A DNA stretch of 64,000 nt from an uncultured Marinilabiliaceae bacterium (GCA_942491535.1 CALOBV010000007.1:69975-133974), one strand, 5' to 3'. Shown: positions 38,504-48,931, counted from the first letter of the stretch. Program-made: numbers and translations. The notes: generated by a model from the letters alone, not told the origin.

Positions 38504-39458
38504 TCCGGGAATGCATTCCACTATCCAGGATAGTGGAAGAACAGGATTCAGGGAATATGGGCTGCCAGTTTCGGGGGTTATGGATATTAGATCATTCCAC
38601 CTTGCTAACTGGCTGGTTAGAAATGATAGGAATGAAGCATTAATAGAAACAACTTTCCCGGGTATTGTGATAGAGTTTCTCTCTACTACTATTTTCGCTA
38701 TTGCAGGAGGTGACATGTCACCGGAATTAAACGGGAAAAAAATACAGAACTGGAAATCATACAGGGCAAAATCTGGTATGCGCCTTGAATTAACCAGGCT
38801 GGGAAGCGGGTCAAGAGCATATATTAGTTTTTCAGGCGGATTCAGAATCGATCCTCAGCTTAATAGTATGTCGACCTATGTAAAAGGAAAACTTGGAGGA
38901 TATCGCGGAAGAGAACTCCGTAAGGATGACATTATTCCTCTATACCCATCAATACCATATTTATATAAGAGCCGAAAAGTACCTGATAGTATGATTCCGG
39001 AATATAAGACAGATGTGGATCTGAAAGTTGTTCCAGGAGTAAATTACGATTTATTCAGCCAGTATTCGATCGAAGAATTTCTAAAAGGAAAATTCACTGT
39101 TTCTAGCAGAAGTGACAGAATGGGACTGAGACTTGAAGGGAAAGAGATTATGCCCGAAACTGATAAACAAATACTTTCATACGGCATTCATCCCGGGACA
39201 ATCCAGGTTCCCGGCGATGGGAATCCAATTATTATGGGTATGGACTGCCAGACTATTGGAGGCTATCCTCAGATTGCAAACATAATAAGTACTGATTTAC
39301 CCAGGGTTGGGCAGCTTAAACCAGGTGATCAGATCAGTTTCAGAATGGTAACTCAGACAGAAGCTCTGGAGTTGCTGAAAATATATGATTTATCCAGTAA
39401 TAAATTATTTGGGATCTCCAGATCAGTTTGCACTGATTGCATTGAAAAACGCCGCTAA
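38481..39458 (+). CDS. pxpC: 5-oxoprolinase subunit C (KipA / allophanate hydrolase subunit 2 family)
   Basis: The track gives 38430. I prefer the ATG at 38481 (MKGIRIVNPGMHSTIQDSGR, the typical N-terminus). Also ...GTIQVPGDGNPIIMGMDCQTIGGYPQIA. Confidence 0.85.
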   Translation: MKGIRIVNPGMHSTIQDSGRTGFREYGLPVSGVMDIRSFHLANWLVRNDRNEALIETTFPGIVIEFLSTTIFAIAGGDMSPELNGKKIQNWKSYRAKSGMRLELTRLGSGSRAYISFSGGFRIDPQLNSMSTYVKGKLGGYRGRELRKDDIIPLYPSIPYLYKSRKVPDSMIPEYKTDVDLKVVPGVNYDLFSQYSIEEFLKGKFTVSSRSDRMGLRLEGKEIMPETDKQILSYGIHPGTIQVPGDGNPIIMGMDCQTIGGYPQIANIISTDLPRVGQLKPGDQISFRMVTQTEALELLKIYDLSSNKLFGISRSVCTDCIEKRR

Positions 39459-40772
39459 TTGTTTTTTAGCAGTTTATTCTTTTCGATCAGATATCTGAAA
39501 GGATAAATAATCCTTTCTATAAGACGCATATCCTGAGTGATGATCTCGGCTGTTCCAGACATATTCTGATTAAACTGCAGCTCTTTATCATAGTTTGTTA
39601 CAAGACCTCCTGGCAGGCTTACATCTACTACATAAACATCGTTGGTTGCAAGCTGTGAAATAGACTCCACAACGCCTTCTACAATTCCATACTCAAGGAA
39701 TGGATAAGCGCCGAGCTTTATCAGTACTTTCTGGCCGGCTTCAACTTCACCTGAGCGTCTCATAGAAAGTTCAACCTTGCCTATAATATGATTTTCTCCA
39801 TCGGGCACCACTGTCAGAACGATATCACCTTCCTGAACAAGCTGGTTTTTACCCCAGAAATTCGAAAATGTCACCCTGCCATCTATTGGTGATTTAATTA
39901 AATGCTTCATATACCAGAGTTCAAGTTCACCCTGAAGCTTTATACTCTCATTTTGAAAAAGGGTATAAAGTTTTCTTCTTTCCTCTTCTCTTGCTGCCTT
40001 AAAGTCCTCAAGGCTCTGGTACCTTGAAGCACGATCAATTAACCTTGATCTCCTATCCAGTCTAACCTGCTCTAAGAGGATCTTCTCATCATAGAATGAT
40101 CTTTTGGTATGTTCGAGTTCCTGCAATGACCTTACATCACTGGCGAATAGGGAGGAATCGCGTAAATATTCAGCCTCAACCAATTTTAGTTTTTCGATAT
40201 AAAGGGCTTCCTTATTCGCAAGTTGCTCCAGGTAATCATTGATGCCTGTAATTTCATCCTGGACTGCATTAATTTTCTTTCCGTAATAGTCGACTGTTAC
40301 ATGGTTGATATAGTTATCAAGACATGTTTTATAAAAAGAATAGTTTGCCCTTAGTTCACCCAGCTGAGGATTTTCAGGCCCGTGGCATTTCAGGACTCTC
40401 TTTATCCACCGAATTAATACCACCAATATTTTCTTCGAGCATATTACTTAACCATAGCACGCTTTCCAGATCGGCGGTAGTTTCGATTAATGCAAGATAT
40501 TCATCTTTATGTACCTGCTGGCCTTCTACCACGAACAAATTGTTAATCTGCCCTGAGATATGTGCCATCATAGAGGCCGGAGGATTGGAGGTGCTTATAA
40601 CTATTTTTCCACTTACAATATATGGATAACTTATTATCCAGGATGCAATCACAGCCATAACAAAAACAATTGCAACAGCACTTATCCCCCACCTCACAAC
40701 AGAGGAAGGCGGATTGCCAATAACTTCCTCTACCGGTGATGATTCTCTTATATCGTGTATTGCTTTGTTCAT
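39455..40772 (-). pseudogene. HlyD-family membrane-fusion protein (about 439 aa), frameshifted
   Basis: ORFs 40374..40772 (N-terminal TM plus lipoyl-like ...VSGKIVISTSNPPASMMAHISGQINNLFVVEGQQVHKDEYLALIE) and 39455..40426 (coiled coil plus beta-barrel) overlap in different frames. Both frames are open between about 40374 and 40445. A 3-nt gap separates it from the upstream ABC exporter gene. Confidence 0.75.
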
Positions 40773-40774
40773 AT

Positions 40775-42961
40775 CTAATTTCCCAGTTCAAGCTGGTTTT
40801 TTACCAGATTATAATAATGCCCCTTTAAAGATATTAGTTGATCATGTGATCCTGTTTCTACTATTCTGCCTTCATCAAGAACAATAATATTGTCGGCATT
40901 TTTAACTGTACTTAGCCTGTGTGCTACTATCAGTACAGTCTTTCCCCTATAAAATCTGATCAGGTTATCATTGATAAGCTTTTCATTATTTGCATCGAGC
41001 GAATTTGTTGCTTCATCAAAAAACAGAAACTCTGGATCTTTGTAAACAGACCTGGCAATTAATATTCTCTGTTTTTGACCCTGGCTCAGACCCTTCCCAT
41101 CAACTCCTATTTTACTGTTATATCCAAGTGGAAGAGATTCGAGGAACTTCCTGATATTAGCTACGTCAACGGATTTGATAAGTTTCTCCTGGTCGATGGT
41201 TTCAATTCCCGGGGCAATATTATACGCTATTGAATCAGGAAAGATAAACCCATCCTGCATAACCACACCGCATTTCTTCCTCCAGAGTTTCAGGCTAAGG
41301 TTACTTAGCATAGTATCACCAATCAATATTTCACCAGTTACCGGTTTATAAAATCCCAGAATCATTTTTAAGAGCGTAGTCTTGCCACTGCCGCTTGGTC
41401 CGACAATGGCAGTTACTTTATGGTGTGGAATATGCATATTGATATCCTTCAGCACCATAGGTGATCTCGGACCTTCATATTGAAACGAAAGGTTATTTAT
41501 ATAAATATCCTTCTCTGCAGGCAAATTTCTTACCTTCATATCCAGATCACTTTCTTCTTCATCCCTGGTATGAACCTCTGCAAGCCGGTTAAGACTCATC
41601 CTGGCATCCTGGGCAGTCCTGAAGAAACTAATTATCTGACCTACAGGCATATTAAGCTGACCTATAATAAACTGAACTGCCAACATCATACCAAGAGTAA
41701 TATCACCATTAATCACGGCGGTAGCAGCAATTACTGTAATAAGTAGATTGCTAACCTCAAGAATAAATTTTCCGCCAGCCTGCTGGTATTGAAAAAGGCT
41801 AAGCGATTTGACCTTGGTCTTAAACAACAGTGCCTGTAAATTTTCCCAGTCCCATCTCTTACTCATCTCACTCTGGGTCAACTTAATCTCCTGCATTCCA
41901 TTAATAATTTCGATCAGCTTGCTGTTGGTTGCAGATTGCTGGCTAAAGCGTTTATGATCGAGCCTGGCTCTCGATTTCATAAATACTGATACCCAGATTA
42001 TATAAAGCAAGGTGCCAGTAACAAAAAGCAAGAGTATCCTGTAATCGTAGATGGCCAGAACTATGCTGAATATTATTATATTAAAAAATGAGAAGAGGAC
42101 ATTTAAGGTAGAAGTGGTCATAAATGATTCAATCCTGTTATTATCCTCAATTCTTTGAAGTAAATCTCCAGTTAATTTGGTATCAAAGAATGAAACGGGC
42201 AAGGACATAAGCTTTGTCAGAAATCCGGATACAACCGAAATATTGACCCTGGTTCCGATATGCAGAAGCAGCCAGCTCCTTATAAAATCAACCGACATTC
42301 TGCCTATTATAAGGGCTAACTGGGCAAACAATATTACATATATAAAGCCAATATCACTGGTATTGATTCCTATATCAATAATAGACTGAGTAAGGAAGGG
42401 CAGGATGAGTTGAATAAAACTTCCAATAAGTAGCCCCAGAATCAACTGAAAAAAATATTTCCTGTAGATTTTTATGTACTTATACAAAAACTTAAAACCA
42501 TGCTTCTCGCTTTTATCATCATCACTGTCATAAAATTCGGGAGTAGGCTGGAGAATCAGAACAAGGCCCTGCTTTTCTCCTTCAAGCGATGTACTTGCCC
42601 AATCCTTTTCAAATTCCTGGCGCGAAATAGTAATCCTTCCAAGAGCAGGATCTGCAATAAAAACCTTATCGGATTTAATTTTATAAACTACAATAAAGTG
42701 CTTTTGCCTCCAGTGGACAATACATGGCAGCGGGCTTTCTTTGCTGAGCTTATCGAAGGGGATCCTTACTCCTATTGTTCTGAAGCCAATTTTCTCTGCA
42801 GCCTCTGACAATCCAAGAAAAGAAACTCCCTCCCTGGTTATATAGCTATATTCTCTCAGCTTATCAATCGAAATACTCCGGCCATAATATGCCGAAACCA
42901 TCTTTAGGCACGATGGTCCGCAATCCATTGCATCAGCCTGCTGAATAAAAGGAAAGGACAT
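40775..42961 (-). CDS. C39-peptidase-domain ABC exporter (double-glycine leader processing/export)
   Basis: The track gives 797 aa. I prefer the ATG at 42959-42961 (MSFPFIQQADAMDCGPSCLK...), giving 728 aa. C39 Cys context is DCGPSC and His context KHFIVVY. Six-TM domain, Walker A GPSGSGKTT, signature LSQGQKQR, Walker B LFFDEATN. Confidence 0.9.
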   Translation of the reverse strand: MSFPFIQQADAMDCGPSCLKMVSAYYGRSISIDKLREYSYITREGVSFLGLSEAAEKIGFRTIGVRIPFDKLSKESPLPCIVHWRQKHFIVVYKIKSDKVFIADPALGRITISRQEFEKDWASTSLEGEKQGLVLILQPTPEFYDSDDDKSEKHGFKFLYKYIKIYRKYFFQLILGLLIGSFIQLILPFLTQSIIDIGINTSDIGFIYVILFAQLALIIGRMSVDFIRSWLLLHIGTRVNISVVSGFLTKLMSLPVSFFDTKLTGDLLQRIEDNNRIESFMTTSTLNVLFSFFNIIIFSIVLAIYDYRILLLFVTGTLLYIIWVSVFMKSRARLDHKRFSQQSATNSKLIEIINGMQEIKLTQSEMSKRWDWENLQALLFKTKVKSLSLFQYQQAGGKFILEVSNLLITVIAATAVINGDITLGMMLAVQFIIGQLNMPVGQIISFFRTAQDARMSLNRLAEVHTRDEEESDLDMKVRNLPAEKDIYINNLSFQYEGPRSPMVLKDINMHIPHHKVTAIVGPSGSGKTTLLKMILGFYKPVTGEILIGDTMLSNLSLKLWRKKCGVVMQDGFIFPDSIAYNIAPGIETIDQEKLIKSVDVANIRKFLESLPLGYNSKIGVDGKGLSQGQKQRILIARSVYKDPEFLFFDEATNSLDANNEKLINDNLIRFYRGKTVLIVAHRLSTVKNADNIIVLDEGRIVETGSHDQLISLKGHYYNLVKNQLELGN

Positions 42962-43081
42962 AAATGAAAATATAGTAATATTATAATTAAGGTAAAGATA
43001 TTTATTATTTAAATCTAAGCAAGCCTGCAACCATAGGGAATGTAATCCGTAGACAAATGAATAGTATTTAGATGGAAATAG

Positions 43082-43089
43082 TATATTTG
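43082..43089 (+). promoter_or_regulatory. candidate -7 box TATATTTG for the sigma-factor gene
   Basis: Matches TAnnTTTG, 21 nt upstream of the GTG at 43110. I saw no clear -33 TTTG. Confidence 0.25.
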
Positions 43090-43109: not shown

Positions 43110-43679
43110 GTGTTTAAAAAGCACTCAGATAAAATGCTGGTTGAGGGATTAAGAAAGGGGGATGACAAAACTCTTAACTACCTCTATAGTAATTATTTCA
43201 GTACTGTTAAATCGTATATTGTAAAGAATAGCGGTACTGAAGATGATGCCTATGATATATTCCAGGATGCCCTGATGGTCGTCTATAAGAAGTTCCAGCA
43301 TAATGGGGTTGAATTGACTTCTGACCTTAAAGCATATGTATTTGGTGTTGCCAGGAAGCTATGGAGTAACCAGCTAAGAACCAAGAAAGAAATTCCAATT
43401 CATGATTATAATGATATAATTGATGATTTCGAACTTGAAAAGCTTCTTGATATTCCGATAGAACAAATAGTACAAAGATCCTTCCTCAAACTACCTGAAG
43501 ACTATCAAAAGGTTCTTACCATGCACCTTGAGGGCTGTGATTATGAAGAAATCGCCAGGAAAATGTCTTACAAGAGTGCTACCTATGCCAGGAGAAAGAA
43601 GTACCTGTGTAAGGAGGAACTAATCAGAATAATCAAATCCGACCCCGATTATAAGGATTATGAAGATTTTGGTCTGTAG
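43110..43679 (+). CDS. ECF-like sigma-70 family RNA polymerase sigma factor
   Basis: 189 aa (GTG start; an alternative ATG lies at 43134). Region 2 is DAYDIFQDALMVVYKK...AYVFGVARKLW. Region 4 HTH is LPEDYQKVLTMHLEGCDYEEIARKMSYKSATYARRKKY. Confidence 0.8.
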   Translation: MFKKHSDKMLVEGLRKGDDKTLNYLYSNYFSTVKSYIVKNSGTEDDAYDIFQDALMVVYKKFQHNGVELTSDLKAYVFGVARKLWSNQLRTKKEIPIHDYNDIIDDFELEKLLDIPIEQIVQRSFLKLPEDYQKVLTMHLEGCDYEEIARKMSYKSATYARRKKYLCKEELIRIIKSDPDYKDYEDFGL

Positions 43680-46600
43680 TACCTTCTCCTTACATATATC
43701 AACGAAAGTATCACCAGTATGGTAAGTCCTATTGTATGCCTCTTATAAAAAATTGGCTCATCCTCGCCTAAAATTACCAGGGCACACCAGAAATAAGGGT
43801 GAGACCTTAGTTGATCGGCAGATCTGAGATATTTTTTCCTCGATTTTTTTAAGGCTCCGCTCTTTGAGTAACCTTGCTTTAAATTACTATAAAACGACTT
43901 AATAATCTCACTTGCTGAATAATCATCAACTTCCCATAAAGACATTACCACTGATGGTGAACCTGCATACATAAAACCCCTTGCCAGGCTAATAATTCCT
44001 TCTCCCGATTGTAGATATCCCGCCCCTGTATTACATGAGCTTAAGACTACCATCTTTGCGTTAAGATCAAGATTATAAATCTCATATGTATTGAGTAAGC
44101 CGTTTTCTATTGTGTCATTATTTTGAGCAAATACCATCTTGGATAGCATCGGTTGCCTGTCGTTAAGCAATGTGTGCATGGCGAGGTGAATAATCTTTTC
44201 ACTTGATGCCTCACTAACAAACCTTTGCTCGCTGGCCTGATTTTCAAGATAAAGCTGGCCACCAAGCAGGCTACTGATATATATAGCCTCCTCTTTTGCT
44301 CCCGGAATATTATTAAGAAGACCTCTTTCCATTTGCCTGGACAGAAGCAATGAATCTGAATCCAGTGTTGAAGAATATGTAGGTGCAAATACCAGGGCGG
44401 GGTTAAAGAAGCTTTTCCCCTTTCCTTCTGATTCTATAAGGAGAGAAGCTGAATAGGTGTAAATAATTTCAAATTCCTTAAAGAGATAATTAATATCACG
44501 ATAATTTATTGGCCTAACCCCTATTGTATCGCTAATCAAAGCCTCAAACGGAATATATGAAAGTATATCATCTGCTGCAATTACGAGATTTTTTGAAATC
44601 AGATACGGTTTAATCGGCTCGATAAGAAGCTTATATAAATAATGCCCATTTTTCACTATTCTTTTAAATTGTGATCGTGCACCAGTCTCAATTGCCGGGT
44701 TTGTAATATCTGAGCGAAACTCTCTGACTATATCCCTGGTAACAGAATCGATAGAAGTATTTAGGAACTCGCAACCTTTCCTGTTGAAAATAAATGTATA
44801 TAGTATTGAATCTGACAGAAAGAATTCAACAAAATTTCTATCCCGTCCAAGATAATTCCTAACATCCTTGCAGTATGCAACTTTATCCTCATGTTTTAAA
44901 CTGTAATACCTGGGATAATCTCTCTCGAATAGATGAATCAATGAATCGCGCTTAATTACGGCCCCGGTACGTTCCTCTTCATATAAATTTACAAGTGTTG
45001 CATCAGCATTACCCGAATTTGTCTCGTTGTATAATTTGTCAGTTAATTCCTTTATATAGTGATCCAGTTCTTTTTCAATGCCTACAAGGTTTTCAGGTAC
45101 ATGAAACTCCATAGCCTGTACTTCCCTTGTTGAAGAGAGTAAGGTTGAAGCCTTGCTCTTCTCAGAGTACCTGAATGCCATATTAAGATAGGCGGGGTCA
45201 TTATCATATTTGTATTTTTCGGATGCCAGCCATATGGCATTGTCCCACAAGAAGTCGAATCGTCCGGTAATCTGCAAGCGGCTTTCTTCACCGGAAAGAT
45301 CAATCTTAACAGAATCAAGAATAGAAATCGCTGCATCAATATCCTTAAGTGCTTTATCGAGATATTCGATTGATTTATCCTGCAAATATTTCTCTCTATA
45401 TATATTACTTCTGAAATCATAAATAAATAATAACCTCGGGGGGCTAAAATATTCTCCGGATCCAAGAACTTCGTTATACAAACTCAGGGCTGCATCAAAT
45501 TCTCCCTTCTCAACCAGCACATTAGCGAGACCTCGCTTTATGTCATTGACTAATACAATTCCATACCGGCCCTCGTTTGTTTTATTATATAAGTCTGAAT
45601 AAATATTGTAAGCGGAACTGATATCATTTATATATAATCTATAGTAAGAAGCAAGATTTTCCCTGGCGCTGAGGTATCTTTCGGAATCTGTACCATAATT
45701 GTCGTAACAGTACTTAACAGCTTTTTTAAATATTTCTAACGATTCTTCATATCTTCCAATCTTGGCCAGGAAGTGACCGTAATTTGTATAATATACATCT
45801 CCATCGTCAGGACTATCTTTCATAGACTCCAGCACCTCAATCATTTTTTCATAGCTTTTTATTGCATTCAGGGTATCGCCTGTCATTGCATTTGCTACAC
45901 TAAGACCATTGGTAATATATAGAAGCATAATCATATCATTATGATCATATTCTATCTGCCTGGTTTCCGCTACCTGGTACATTGACCTTGCATTATTATA
46001 ATCACCCCTGGCGCCATAATAAACGCCAAGATTATAATATAGCAGCCCCAGCGAACTAAATTCTCTGCTTGATTTTCCTACTATTTCAATTGCTCTCAGG
46101 GCCGACTCCCTTGCATTATTATATTCGCCCATATCAATATATACCGCCGACAAATTGGCAAGTGGCTTAATTAGATAGTGAGAGCTATCCCCGTAATATA
46201 TCTCTCGTAACTTAATGCTTCTTTTCAAAAAATCGGCCCCTTCAATGTACCTGTCGAGCCCATATATGGATAAACCGAGTTGAGATATAACAGTGCATAA
46301 GCCTGCCGTATCGGGCTTTTCTGATAGCTGGTAGGATTCTATAGCCCTACTATAGTATCGTTCGGCTTCAATATATTCTCGATGATTATAACTATATCCA
46401 CCCAGATACCTGTTAATCCTTGCAAATAGATCAGGAGATAATCCCGGCCTCGTCTCAACAAAATCGAGGAGGTAATTATACATCTCAGTAGACCGATCAG
46501 AGTAAGCATCCCTGTTAAGTTCACTTGCAAACAAATCAAGTAAAAGATTGATGTCGATATCGCCGGTATCTGAGTATACCATTATATCGTTACTTATACT

Positions 46601-46687
46601 ATTATTTACTTCCAATGCATATGCATTATCACTTATAGGTAAAATAAAGAATAATGCCCCTGCTATTAACTTAAAATACTTTTCCAT
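43658..46687 (-). CDS. exported, C-terminally anchored TPR-CHAT (caspase-fold) protease
   Basis: 1009 aa. Signal peptide MEKYFKLIAGALFFILPISDNAYA. About 450 aa of TPR-like repeats. The C-terminal CHAT domain has His context IIHLAMHT and Cys context VVLSSCNTGAGY. A terminal TM (TIGLTILVILSLIYV) is followed by a basic RRRYYRPK tail. Confidence 0.85.
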   Translation of the reverse strand: MEKYFKLIAGALFFILPISDNAYALEVNNSISNDIMVYSDTGDIDINLLLDLFASELNRDAYSDRSTEMYNYLLDFVETRPGLSPDLFARINRYLGGYSYNHREYIEAERYYSRAIESYQLSEKPDTAGLCTVISQLGLSIYGLDRYIEGADFLKRSIKLREIYYGDSSHYLIKPLANLSAVYIDMGEYNNARESALRAIEIVGKSSREFSSLGLLYYNLGVYYGARGDYNNARSMYQVAETRQIEYDHNDMIMLLYITNGLSVANAMTGDTLNAIKSYEKMIEVLESMKDSPDDGDVYYTNYGHFLAKIGRYEESLEIFKKAVKYCYDNYGTDSERYLSARENLASYYRLYINDISSAYNIYSDLYNKTNEGRYGIVLVNDIKRGLANVLVEKGEFDAALSLYNEVLGSGEYFSPPRLLFIYDFRSNIYREKYLQDKSIEYLDKALKDIDAAISILDSVKIDLSGEESRLQITGRFDFLWDNAIWLASEKYKYDNDPAYLNMAFRYSEKSKASTLLSSTREVQAMEFHVPENLVGIEKELDHYIKELTDKLYNETNSGNADATLVNLYEEERTGAVIKRDSLIHLFERDYPRYYSLKHEDKVAYCKDVRNYLGRDRNFVEFFLSDSILYTFIFNRKGCEFLNTSIDSVTRDIVREFRSDITNPAIETGARSQFKRIVKNGHYLYKLLIEPIKPYLISKNLVIAADDILSYIPFEALISDTIGVRPINYRDINYLFKEFEIIYTYSASLLIESEGKGKSFFNPALVFAPTYSSTLDSDSLLLSRQMERGLLNNIPGAKEEAIYISSLLGGQLYLENQASEQRFVSEASSEKIIHLAMHTLLNDRQPMLSKMVFAQNNDTIENGLLNTYEIYNLDLNAKMVVLSSCNTGAGYLQSGEGIISLARGFMYAGSPSVVMSLWEVDDYSASEIIKSFYSNLKQGYSKSGALKKSRKKYLRSADQLRSHPYFWCALVILGEDEPIFYKRHTIGLTILVILSLIYVRRRYYRPKSS

Positions 46688-46952
46688 ATTTTATCTTCCC
46701 TTCCCTGCATGTGTAAGATCCATACCTGTCACAAAGTAAAAAAAATAATAATAAGTTCTATCCGATAGGAATTTATTAAATAATTCATAAAAAAAAACAT
46801 GATCGTATTGCTTTAATTAACAAGTATTTAACTTGAAGGCAAATTTTTTTTATAAAAAAACATTCTTTTTCGTTGTCACAAATAAGGTTTTCATTACATG
46901 TACTTATGTAACATAATAAACAACCCGATTTAACAAACAAAAATTTAAAACG

Positions 46953-47105
46953 ATGAAAAACCTGAATCAAGAAATCAAATTTGAAAACTTCAACGAATTT
47001 TTACTGGCAGACGAAGAACTTATTAACGTACGCGGAGGCGACGGAAATGAAGCAGGAGAAAAAGGAACTGTTGTTCCTCCTGTTGTAGCTGATCCTGAAA
47101 TCTAG
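46953..47105 (+). CDS. double-glycine-leader precursor peptide (50 aa)
   Basis: Translated by hand: MKNLNQEIKFENFNEFLLADEELINVRGG / DGNEAGEKGTVVPPVVADPEI, with stop TAG at 47103-47105. The leader fits L(-12) E(-8) L(-7) V(-4) G(-2) G(-1). It is too short for the ORF track. It lies in a 594-nt gap between CHAT-locus genes. Confidence 0.65.
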   Translation: MKNLNQEIKFENFNEFLLADEELINVRGGDGNEAGEKGTVVPPVVADPEI

Positions 47106-47302: not shown

Positions 47303-48049
47303 ATGGAAAATATTGAATTTACCAGGTTTATTGAGCGCTACCTGGACAACAAAATGCAAGCATCTGAAAGAAGATGGTTCGAAAAAGAGATGGAAGGTAA
47401 TCTCTGGCTCAAAAAAGAACTGGAACTGAGGCGTAAGGCAAACGAAATAGCTTCTAATTTCGATGCTGTTAAGATCAGGGAAAAGCTACAGAGAGCTGAA
47501 ATGCTACATAGGAAAGAATCTTCTATTAGTAAGGCTGTTAAGAAAGTACCGGTTAACTATGCTGCCATCTTTCTTGGTCTTATAATTATCAGCACTCTGA
47601 TTATTCTCTCAGGCAACAGTTTTGATCTGAGATCATATACAAGTGATTCTGTAGATAATTATACAGCCCTTACAATACACAGATCCGGAGATGTAAATGT
47701 TCCCCGTCAACTATCAATGGGAATGCAACTCTACCGGGAAGGAAAATATAATGAAGCTATTCAGCAATTTGAATTATTGGTTGATGGCAATCAATCTACC
47801 ATACAGTCTAACTTCCTCAATGGTATGGCGAATATGCAAATAAGCGAATACAACAAGGCTATTAAATCGTTTGACGTGGTAATTGAACATAACGATAATA
47901 TGTTCATCGAAGACGCATCATATTACCTGGGCCTCTGCTACGTAAATATTGAAGAAAATGAGAGGGCAAAGGCAATATTGGAGGGTATAATATCCAGTGA
48001 AAGCCGCTACAGGAAGGATGCAAAAAAATTATTAAAAAGCATAGACTAA
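47303..48049 (+). CDS. single-pass membrane TPR protein, anti-sigma-factor-like
   Basis: The track start 47282 is TTG. I prefer the ATG at 47303 (MENIEFTRFIERYLDNKMQASERRWFEKEMEGN, a pattern resembling anti-sigma N-domains but lacking the zinc ligands). One TM (YAAIFLGLIIISTLIILSG) is followed by an extracytoplasmic TPR region. Confidence 0.5.
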   Translation: MENIEFTRFIERYLDNKMQASERRWFEKEMEGNLWLKKELELRRKANEIASNFDAVKIREKLQRAEMLHRKESSISKAVKKVPVNYAAIFLGLIIISTLIILSGNSFDLRSYTSDSVDNYTALTIHRSGDVNVPRQLSMGMQLYREGKYNEAIQQFELLVDGNQSTIQSNFLNGMANMQISEYNKAIKSFDVVIEHNDNMFIEDASYYLGLCYVNIEENERAKAILEGIISSESRYRKDAKKLLKSID

Positions 48050-48091: not shown

Positions 48092-48931
48092 ATGTTTGAT
48101 TCTGAAAACAAATACAGAGAACAAATAAGTAACAATTCCGGCAAAGGGGATGTTATAGGTAGTGAAAGTATTTCATGCACAGATTCAAATATTTTGTCTT
48201 GCCCGAAAATTTTGACGGGCCTATCACATGAGGTGAGAACCTATATGAATTCTATAGTGGCTTTCTCATTTCTCCAGAATTCAGACAATTGCAATATAAA
48301 TGACAGACAGGAATACACTGATCATATTTTAAATTCATGTGACCAGCTAATTACACTGTTTGATAATTTTCTTGATTCAGCTTTAATCGACGCTGAGAAA
48401 CCCAGCAGTAATCTCAAAAAAAGAGAACTGACGGATATTCTTCAGCACCTTGCTATTGAATTGAACAGTTCACTGGCAAAATTTGACAAAAGTAATGTTT
48501 CACTCGTCCTGGAAGAACAAACATACAGGGACGAAGTATTTATTGATGAGGAAAAGATATTTCGGGTTATCAAAAACCTCTTCCATAACGCTGTGGAGCA
48601 TACAACATCGGGTTACATTAAATTAGGTTACAAAAAGGTAGATAGCCAGGTTGTTTTTTATGTTATAGATTCAGGAAATGGCTATCACCTGAACAAGGAA
48701 TTGCTGGAGGCTGATAACCTCACCTCCTACCTTGTTAAGAACAACAGCACATTTACAACAGTAGGTTTAATCCTGGCCAACAAGCTTATCGAGAGTATGA
48801 ACGGAAAGTTCTGGATTGAACCTAATGGAGTTAATGGTACGGGCATGTATTTTTCAATTCACTACCGTAAAGCCTTTGATCCCCAGGAAAATGAGGATAT
48901 AAATAAGTTCAAATCCAGAATCGCTATATGA
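48092..48931 (+). CDS. cytoplasmic histidine kinase without sensor or TM domain
   Basis: 279 aa. H-box LSHEVRTYMNSI appears after only about 40 residues. N-box NLFHNAVEHT, G1 DSGNG, G2 GVNGTG. No response regulator is adjacent. Confidence 0.8.
   Translation: MFDSENKYREQISNNSGKGDVIGSESISCTDSNILSCPKILTGLSHEVRTYMNSIVAFSFLQNSDNCNINDRQEYTDHILNSCDQLITLFDNFLDSALIDAEKPSSNLKKRELTDILQHLAIELNSSLAKFDKSNVSLVLEEQTYRDEVFIDEEKIFRVIKNLFHNAVEHTTSGYIKLGYKKVDSQVVFYVIDSGNGYHLNKELLEADNLTSYLVKNNSTFTTVGLILANKLIESMNGKFWIEPNGVNGTGMYFSIHYRKAFDPQENEDINKFKSRIAI

Follow-up and report, generated by a model that had tools for sequence, protein, structure and literature searches.

A predicted membrane-anchored, periplasm-facing TPR-CHAT protease encoded with an ECF sigma factor and an anti-sigma-like protein in Bacteroidota

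What might a caspase-fold protease do beside a sigma factor of the extracytoplasmic function (ECF) type, and on which side of the membrane would it act? The question is raised by a locus in a 64,000-nt stretch of DNA from an uncultured Marinilabiliaceae bacterium (GCA_942491535.1 CALOBV010000007.1:69975-133974), referred to here as the window, in whose coordinates all positions are given. The locus contains a gene for a 1009-residue protein (43658-46687, minus strand) made up of tetratricopeptide repeats (TPR) and a CHAT domain, as judged from the open reading frame (ORF), matches to the Pfam CHAT and TPR families, an AlphaFold2 (AF2) model and Foldseek searches. An original prediction, made from the DNA sequence of the window, described the protein as a protease with an intact catalytic dyad, facing the periplasm, tail-anchored by a C-terminal transmembrane (TM) helix and paired with a sigma factor. 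Taken as a whole, our results are best explained if the protein is a Sec-exported, anchored periplasmic CHAT protease that forms the third member of a Bacteroidota-wide sigma factor/anti-sigma/protease trio, a reading to which we assign a probability of roughly 0.55.

In a database search, hundreds of TPR-CHAT proteins with a length near 1000 residues were found, originating from Bacteroidales and Bacteroidota metagenomes. The window's gene, which scores 188.7 bits in a genome search, is the sole CHAT gene of its genome. Pfam CHAT (PF12770, caspase-hemoglobinase fold) matches residues 681-974 of the protein with an E-value of 3.2e-54 and 184.8 bits (cut-off 24), covering model positions 4-288 of 289. 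Residue conservation was assessed in an alignment of 117 sequences with about 33-36% overall identity to the query, which also served for AF2. His834, His838, Cys885 and Gly888 are invariant in this alignment, so that the putative catalytic dyad, His838 in HLAMHT (44174-44176, minus strand) and Cys885 in LSSCNTG (44033-44035, minus strand), is present and properly aligned, as originally predicted; both residues are also kept in 24 of 25 distant homologs that were aligned. The AF2 model (pLDDT 85.7, pTM 0.81) consists of a helix at residues 2-14, a disordered stretch (15-41), an all-helical TPR-like array from residue 46 to about 600, an alpha/beta domain (606-975) and a final helix (983-1003). 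His838 and Cys885 are located at the ends of adjacent beta strands (832-840 and 879-886), an arrangement known from caspase-fold enzymes, and in the model the CHAT domain (606-975; 43763-44872, minus strand) has a caspase-like fold. We infer that the protein is a catalytically competent cysteine protease of this fold, its activity being a prediction. The helical array (residues 46-600, about 550 residues; 44888-46552, minus strand) is matched by several Pfam TPR families (TPR_12, TPR_2 and others) between residues 100 and 410. Residues 45-440 diverge more than any other part of the protein, with a mean p-distance of 0.66 compared with 0.43 for the protease domain.

The closest match to the model in the Protein Data Bank (PDB), found with Foldseek, is DdvA of Myxococcus (8rw5, 8rot_A; E about 2e-14), followed by the TPR-CHAT protein of Craspase (8d9f_A, 7y85_D) and separases, with E-values ranging from 1e-11 to 1e-14. 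Sequence searches against solved structures returned only generic TPR proteins with the full-length protein or its profile, and no match with the CHAT domain alone. Since these searches are blind to DdvA, Craspase and separase, the relationship is visible at the level of the fold only.

The location of the protease was predicted from hydropathy, the -3/-1 and positive-inside rules, conservation and the AF2 model. Its ORF is uninterrupted and starts at the first possible start codon after an upstream stop, with no alternative start further upstream. Judging from the sequence, its conservation and the model, residues 1-24 (MEKYFKLIAGALFFILPISDNAYA|LE; 46616-46687, minus strand) are a predicted signal peptide with the textbook Sec layout, MEKYFK-LIAGALFFILPI-SDNAYA|LE, in which a basic n-region is followed by an h-region of 12 residues, not long enough for a membrane-spanning helix, and by A-x-A at -3/-1. 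The C-terminus reads KRH-TIGLTILVILSLIYV-RRRYYRPKSS, in which hydropathy, conservation and AF2 point to a membrane anchor (43661-43735, minus strand) with a hydrophobic core at residues 985-999 (43691-43735) and a basic tail, RRRYYRPKSS (43661-43690). These N- and C-terminal stretches are the most hydrophobic 19-residue windows of the protein. Among 118 database homologs of at least 900 residues, all end in a hydrophobic 15-mer and a K/R-rich tail, commonly ...YFxKRKYS, and 95 have a hydrophobic N-terminal segment. The same anchor is found at all 79 complete 3' ends in a set of 80 genomic loci, all from metagenome-assembled genomes of Bacteroidales, in which ORFs were rebuilt independently of gene callers; a signal-like N-terminus is present in 54 of 63 distant Bacteroidota TPR-CHAT homologs. 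Of the 1388 ORFs with 300 residues or more in the window's own genome, only 7 have both a signal-like N-terminus and a C-terminal TM segment with a basic tail, with no TM segment in between. The conservation of both membrane signals across the family argues that the features at the two ends of the protein are not due to chance. It is very probable, on these grounds, that the body faces the periplasm and is anchored C-terminally, the predicted topology that had been proposed at the outset, with the basic tail inside. If the body were instead cytoplasmic, the N-terminal hydrophobic stretch would be no functional export signal. The strict test for a signal-like N-terminus is indeed failed by 14 of 77 complete 5' ends and passed by 63, but most of the failures are near misses or have non-ATG starts. 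A cytoplasmic body is extremely improbable given the basic n-region, the 12-residue h-region and AxA, and the strongly basic C-terminus after a second hydrophobic segment, both conserved phylum-wide; moreover, the partners of the protein described below are periplasmic or exported.

The term tail-anchored fits the protein in part. A C-terminal anchor is present, but tail-anchored proteins in the strict sense have a cytosolic body and no N-terminal signal, whereas here a predicted cleavable signal peptide is present and conserved; the protein is better described as a putative type I bitopic membrane protein carrying a stand-alone protease. The helix followed by an Arg cluster also resembles the layout of sorting signals of the exosortase/rhombosortase type, which would be cleaved to release or transfer the mature protease, and the C-terminus shows sub-threshold similarity to VPDSG-CTERM (E 0.022, 14.9 bits, cut-off 22) and GlyGly-CTERM (12.6 bits, cut-off 15.5). 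These alignments cover just the generic TM and basic part, the CTERM signature motif is absent from the C-terminus, the last strand of the CHAT fold accounts for the conserved residues that precede the helix, and no sortase-like gene was seen in the module. A cleavable sorting signal is therefore very unlikely.

Of 401 Bacteroidota genomes sampled, many contain CHAT-domain matches to a profile of the family. Sixty distant Bacteroidota loci, containing the 63 TPR-CHAT genes already mentioned, were scanned with hidden Markov models made from the module proteins, and a sigma factor and/or anti-sigma-like gene was counted as a neighbour if it lay at most 2.5 kb from the CHAT gene. Such a neighbour is present beside 28 genes whose products have a C-terminal TM segment with a basic tail and missing beside 5; for the unanchored genes the corresponding numbers are 4 and 26 (Fisher p 8e-9, odds ratio about 36, 63 genes with kinship ignored). 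The anchor thus goes with sigma/anti-sigma neighbours, which bears out its predicted pairing with a sigma factor and suggests that it is specific to the sigma-linked subfamily. In the distant trios the sigma gene is the immediate neighbour of a gene for a TM-TPR protein and shares its strand, as in ordinary sigma/anti-sigma pairs, and the CHAT gene converges on this pair or comes after it. Across the phylum the trio is met again in genomic surroundings that are unrelated to one another, independently of any synteny among the 80 loci. These neighbourhoods indicate that the TM-TPR protein is the cognate partner of the sigma factor, and that the link of the protease to the pair is functional, not accidental. 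We consider it probable that the CHAT protein is a regulatory partner of the sigma/anti-sigma pair. Anchored TPR-CHAT proteins with a sigma factor are common in Bacteroidota and not an oddity of one locus. The split trio is widespread in this phylum, which of all phyla carries the highest number of ECF sigma factors per genome (PMC7826278), and as far as we could find it is undescribed there: we found no paper on a Bacteroidota sigma/anti-sigma/CHAT trio, and the ECF54 group, for which the literature mentions CHAT proteins nearby, is described without an anti-sigma factor. The survey also revealed a second Bacteroidota TPR-CHAT subfamily (loci L113-L117, L120, L122, L123, L128 and L132-L150), which has a signal-like N-terminus, ends right after the CHAT fold (...YWAPFVLIG) without an anchor, and mostly lacks sigma/anti-sigma neighbours. 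Its members are presumably soluble periplasmic or secreted proteases with another role.

The sigma factor of the window is of the ECF type (43110-43679, plus strand; Sigma70_r2/r4_2, TIGR02937), and its gene is present in 79 of the 80 loci, where partners were counted by tblastn. As the original prediction had it, the protease is linked to this sigma factor: the two genes converge, their coding 3' ends overlapping by 22 nt in the window (43658-43679), and an overlap of 16-34 nt is kept in 77 of the 80 loci. The overlap leaves no room for separate terminators, and antisense effects may couple expression of the two genes. What the original prediction had missed is the anti-sigma-like partner (47303-48049, plus strand; present in 74 of the 80 loci), the counterpart of the TM-TPR protein encoded next to the sigma gene in distant relatives. 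It was assigned from its TM segment, matches to TPR families, an AF2 model and the neighbourhoods of the distant trios, and consists of a helical cytoplasmic N-domain of about 75 residues, a TM segment at approximately residues 85-102, a flexible linker and a periplasmic domain of three TPRs. The AF2 model (pLDDT 77) shows four N-terminal helices, the TM helix, a low-confidence linker with pLDDT below 50 at residues 103-105 and 126-130, and a YbgF-like three-TPR domain.

An extracytoplasmic TPR-CHAT protein associated with an ECF sigma factor has a precedent in DdvA/DdvS. DdvA is a single-pass anti-sigma factor with a periplasmic TPR-CHAT region of about 900 residues that contains a His-Cys dyad; in the model put forward for it, CHAT acts in trans as the site-1 protease on the flexible linker next to the membrane, and RseP follows (PMC11506125, 2024). 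DdvA controls a CBASS/CRISPR defence island, and DdvA-like proteins have been reported only from Myxococcota and one Comamonas species (PMC11506125). The likeness to DdvA/DdvS (PDB 8rot, 8rw5) lies in the TPR-CHAT region, whose periplasmic position is a prediction for our protein, in the dyad and the ECF sigma link, and in the proposed site-1 cut by CHAT in a juxtamembrane linker, with RseP acting next. An ECF sigma gene lies alongside in the 79 loci noted above, and 28 of 33 anchored distant homologs have a sigma and/or anti-sigma-like neighbour. The architecture is different. DdvA carries a cytoplasmic zinc anti-sigma domain, a TM segment and TPR-CHAT in one chain, whereas the CHAT chain described here begins with a signal peptide followed by TPRs, has no N-terminal zinc anti-sigma domain and no TM segment before TPR-CHAT (its sole TM-length helix is 983-1003), and is a stand-alone protease anchored at its C-terminus. 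A second chain forms the anti-sigma-like protein, with a small periplasmic TPR domain of its own and no recognisable zinc anti-sigma domain. Sequence identity between DdvA and the CHAT protein is about 13%, and the locus differs from that of DdvA in containing peptide, exporter and kinase genes. The notion of a different biological setting, part of the original prediction, holds for this split architecture but not for the combination of an extracytoplasmic TPR-CHAT protein with an ECF sigma factor, and the DdvA precedent narrows the novelty to the architecture.

DdvA also suggests a role for the protein in which catalysis plays no part. In DdvA the bulky TPR-CHAT region blocks RseP, and its active site is incomplete, with no need for catalysis demonstrated to date (PMC11506125). 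By analogy, our protein could be a non-catalytic periplasmic co-receptor or steric shield that sits on the anti-sigma TPR domain and blocks the site-2 protease until displaced, and the presence of TPR interaction modules on both proteins would suit such an arrangement. The His/Cys dyad and nearby motifs are invariant among the 117 aligned sequences at an overall identity as low as 33-36%, which argues for retained catalysis and makes a purely steric role quite unlikely.

The other TPR-CHAT protein retrieved by the fold search, Csx29 of Craspase, is cytoplasmic and cleaves Csx30 near M427, in a flexible loop; Csx30 is an inhibitor of an ECF-like sigma factor, which is freed by the cut (PMC10028731). 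Both systems link TPR-CHAT to an inhibitor of an ECF-like sigma factor, with the difference that the Csx29 substrate has been demonstrated and ours is proposed. Craspase is a cytoplasmic, RNA-activated type III-E system with Cas7-11, Csx30 and CASP-sigma, whereas our protein carries export and anchor signals. It is not associated with Cas7-11 and a CRISPR array, and CRISPR genes were not seen in the module, the neighbours being the sigma factor, a C39-peptidase ABC exporter (PCAT), HlyD, a peptide, the anti-sigma-like protein, a kinase and housekeeping genes. A functional parallel may be offered by DegS (acting on RseA) and PrsW (acting on RsiW), where a membrane-associated, periplasm-facing protease acts on a single-pass anti-sigma factor and a signal-dependent first cut licenses intramembrane proteolysis, as is proposed here. 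Site-1 enzymes of the DegS/PrsW type are serine proteases or metalloproteases and are generally not encoded beside each sigma/anti-sigma pair. The trio described here would instead use a caspase-fold cysteine protease encoded by a dedicated neighbouring gene.

From the observed sequence features, conservation, fold and gene linkage we infer a localisation, protease activity, substrate and cue, which may be combined into the following mechanism. The CHAT protein would be exported through Sec and its 24-residue signal peptide removed. One C-terminal helix and a short basic cytoplasmic tail would keep it on the inner membrane, so that the whole TPR-CHAT body would face the periplasm. A periplasmic cue would activate the protease, which would cut the juxtamembrane linker of the anti-sigma-like protein at Arg127-Ser128, after which intramembrane proteolysis could proceed and the sigma factor be set free. 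A plausible cue in this lineage is a 21-residue peptide that is exported by the C39 exporter and binds to one or other of the two TPR domains in the periplasm. The freed sigma factor would then act on the GTCACAAA-N12-TACATG promoter and so drive the peptide/anti-sigma/kinase operon. The partners that we count as support all lie outside the cytoplasm or in the membrane, namely the periplasmic TPR domain on the anti-sigma-like protein and the double-glycine (GG) leader peptide with its PCAT/HlyD exporter.

The step in which the CHAT protease makes a signal-dependent cut in the anti-sigma linker is a tentative one, for which we would give odds somewhat below even. The candidate site (47681-47686, plus strand) is conserved in 60 (Arg127) and 57 (Ser128) of 61 sequences and lies about 25 residues beyond the TM helix, inside an otherwise variable linker. 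The distant anti-sigma-like proteins mostly have ...[IV]-x-R-[SG] approximately 23-30 residues past the TM segment (R-[SGA] in 17 of 24), and in five of them, forming one subgroup, P-M-S (the M-S form) replaces R-[SG]. A site-1 cleavage site might be expected to take the form of such a short conserved motif within a flexible linker close to the membrane; separase-type CHAT enzymes cut after Arg, and Csx29 cuts near a Met. The active-site loops of CHAT do differ between the linker classes (R-S or M-S), with W-x-I-D-E as against W-x-[VA]-[NP]-D, but co-variation was discarded as a line of evidence, being inseparable from subfamily phylogeny. A broader version of the proposal, that anchored periplasmic CHAT proteases are a phylum-wide site-1 class for ECF anti-sigma factors, cutting at Arg-Ser or Met-Ser, and have been captured in this lineage by an autoinducing peptide exported by PCAT, is doubtful.

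The peptide and its exporter belong to a gene order that is common to all 80 loci. The peptide gene adjoins the CHAT gene on the opposite strand and is followed by the anti-sigma-like and kinase genes, all three reading away from CHAT; on the other side the CHAT gene converges on the sigma gene, beyond which the PCAT and HlyD genes read in the same direction as CHAT. The peptide gene (46953-47105, plus strand) is an ORF of 50 codons encoding a GG leader (...ELINVRGG) and a mature peptide of 21 residues, DGNEAGEKGTVVPPVVADPEI. A pattern search found such a gene in 73 of the 80 loci, the mature peptides being 12-21 residues long, acidic at the N-terminus and rich in proline at the C-terminus (...PP[IV]x[IL]). 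In one locus (L054:8539-9451) it occurs as five identical tandem copies. PCAT (40775-42961, minus strand; Peptidase_C39, ABC_membrane and ABC_tran), whose likely start is the Met codon at 42961, is found in 78 of the 80 loci with 64-91% identity. The gene of its membrane-fusion partner of the HlyD type (39455-40772, minus strand; HlyD_3, Biotin_lipoyl_2) consists in the window of two overlapping frames (40374-40772, 132 residues, and 39455-40426, 323 residues), where relatives have a single ORF of about 429 residues; the split may be due to a frameshift or to an error in sequencing, or may mean that export by this route is disabled here. The last gene of the peptide operon encodes a cytoplasmic histidine kinase of 279 residues (48092-48931, plus strand; HisKA and HATPase_c) with an intact H-box and neither a TM segment nor a sensor domain, co-oriented with the peptide and anti-sigma genes in 64 of the 80 loci. 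A response regulator was not seen in the module.

A GG-leader peptide, a C39 ABC exporter and an HlyD-type partner in one locus recall the ComC/ComAB type of system. Such systems signal via a membrane histidine kinase and a response regulator, whereas the neighbours here are a sigma/anti-sigma pair, a periplasmic protease and a sensor-less kinase, and the peptide is a candidate signal only. It could be asked whether the peptide, or some other envelope protein, is the substrate of a protease that is periplasmic and anchored as proposed, and is trimmed, matured or destroyed by it, the enzyme then having a processing or quenching function next to the sigma circuit. The position of the peptide gene directly beside the CHAT gene would fit, the penultimate residue of many mature peptides is a conserved K/R (PP[IV][KR]I), and TPR domains commonly bind short peptides, with weak similarities to RNPP_C, Rap and NprR seen here. 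However, the window's own peptide lacks the K/R motif, and peptide distances showed no specific co-variation with module proteins: in partial Mantel tests against the protease's TPR part and its CHAT domain, both halves of the anti-sigma-like protein, the sigma factor and HlyD, the correlations were all similar (partial r 0.23-0.51). The trio itself occurs across Bacteroidota, and no C39-type exporter was seen beside the 60 distant loci, which contain a few generic ABC-type matches and where no search for peptides was made. It therefore seems that the core function does not require such a peptide, and peptide and exporter look like an add-on in this lineage. We regard the peptide or another envelope protein as an unlikely principal substrate, and return to the sigma/anti-sigma/protease trio as the preferred reading.

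Several observations weigh against the trio as we read it. The core of the anchor is short, at only 15 residues. The association between anchor and sigma neighbourhood was calculated without correction for phylogeny and largely splits two subfamilies, and the synteny of the 80 loci is partly vertical inheritance, as the flanking housekeeping genes (queE, a TPR/TolB/OmpA gene, pyrG and yidC) are syntenic as well. The N-domain of the anti-sigma-like protein has no Pfam or NCBIfam match and resembles none of the known anti-sigma families, and a fold search with the whole model returned TPR matches only, leaving the N-domain unmatched. Cleavage at Arg-Ser is a guess from conservation alone, and the divergence of the peptide tracks every module protein about equally, so that no TPR domain can be assigned as its receptor.

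If the trio works as proposed, caspase-fold enzymes would be a third protease class for site-1 cleavage of anti-sigma factors, beside serine proteases and metalloproteases, and the association of TPR-CHAT with anti-sigma and ECF sigma factors, which recurs in Craspase (CRISPR defence) and in DdvA of Myxococcus, would reach into ordinary envelope signalling. Should either topology or cleavage prove wrong, the protein is simply another uncharacterised exported protease. Experimental handles are offered by H838, C885, the anchor, the candidate site R127-S128 and the candidate sigma-dependent promoter.

This promoter-like signal is a bipartite motif, GTCACAAA-N12-TACATG (46875-46900, plus strand), which precedes the start codon of the peptide gene by 53 nt. 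In the form GTCACAAA-N12-[GT]ACATG it has a fixed span of 26 nt, occurs usually once per locus and lies 5' of the peptide gene in 74 of 81 loci; it was never found upstream of the CHAT, sigma or exporter genes of the same loci. By its sequence, it looks like an ECF-type promoter. A TAnnTTTG box is located upstream of 33 of 69 CHAT genes, and a -7 box of the same type lies before the sigma gene (43074-43089). The simplest reading of these signals is that protease, sigma factor and exporter are constitutive and that the sigma factor drives the peptide/anti-sigma/kinase operon. A housekeeping-type promoter apparently drives the CHAT gene, which would make the protease an input or regulatory part of the system, not an output.

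A further block, AAAATATAAATATCTTTAC (42992-43009, minus strand), lies approximately 31 nt before the start of the exporter gene and is conserved in nearly all loci, more so than a typical housekeeping promoter; copies of its core, with one mismatch allowed, are found elsewhere in the loci. We considered this block as the promoter of the module's sigma factor and rejected it, given its resemblance to the housekeeping TAnnTTTG -7 box and the many other copies in the loci. Downstream of the bipartite motif, the 5' untranslated region contains a block, GAATTACCCTGAATTAGTATCAA, that is common to many loci. In the closest relatives only (L001 and L005-L008), the motif is overlapped by a palindrome, TTACATGTA...TACATGTAA, which could be an operator over the -10-like element; motif and palindrome together fall within 46875-46911 (plus strand).

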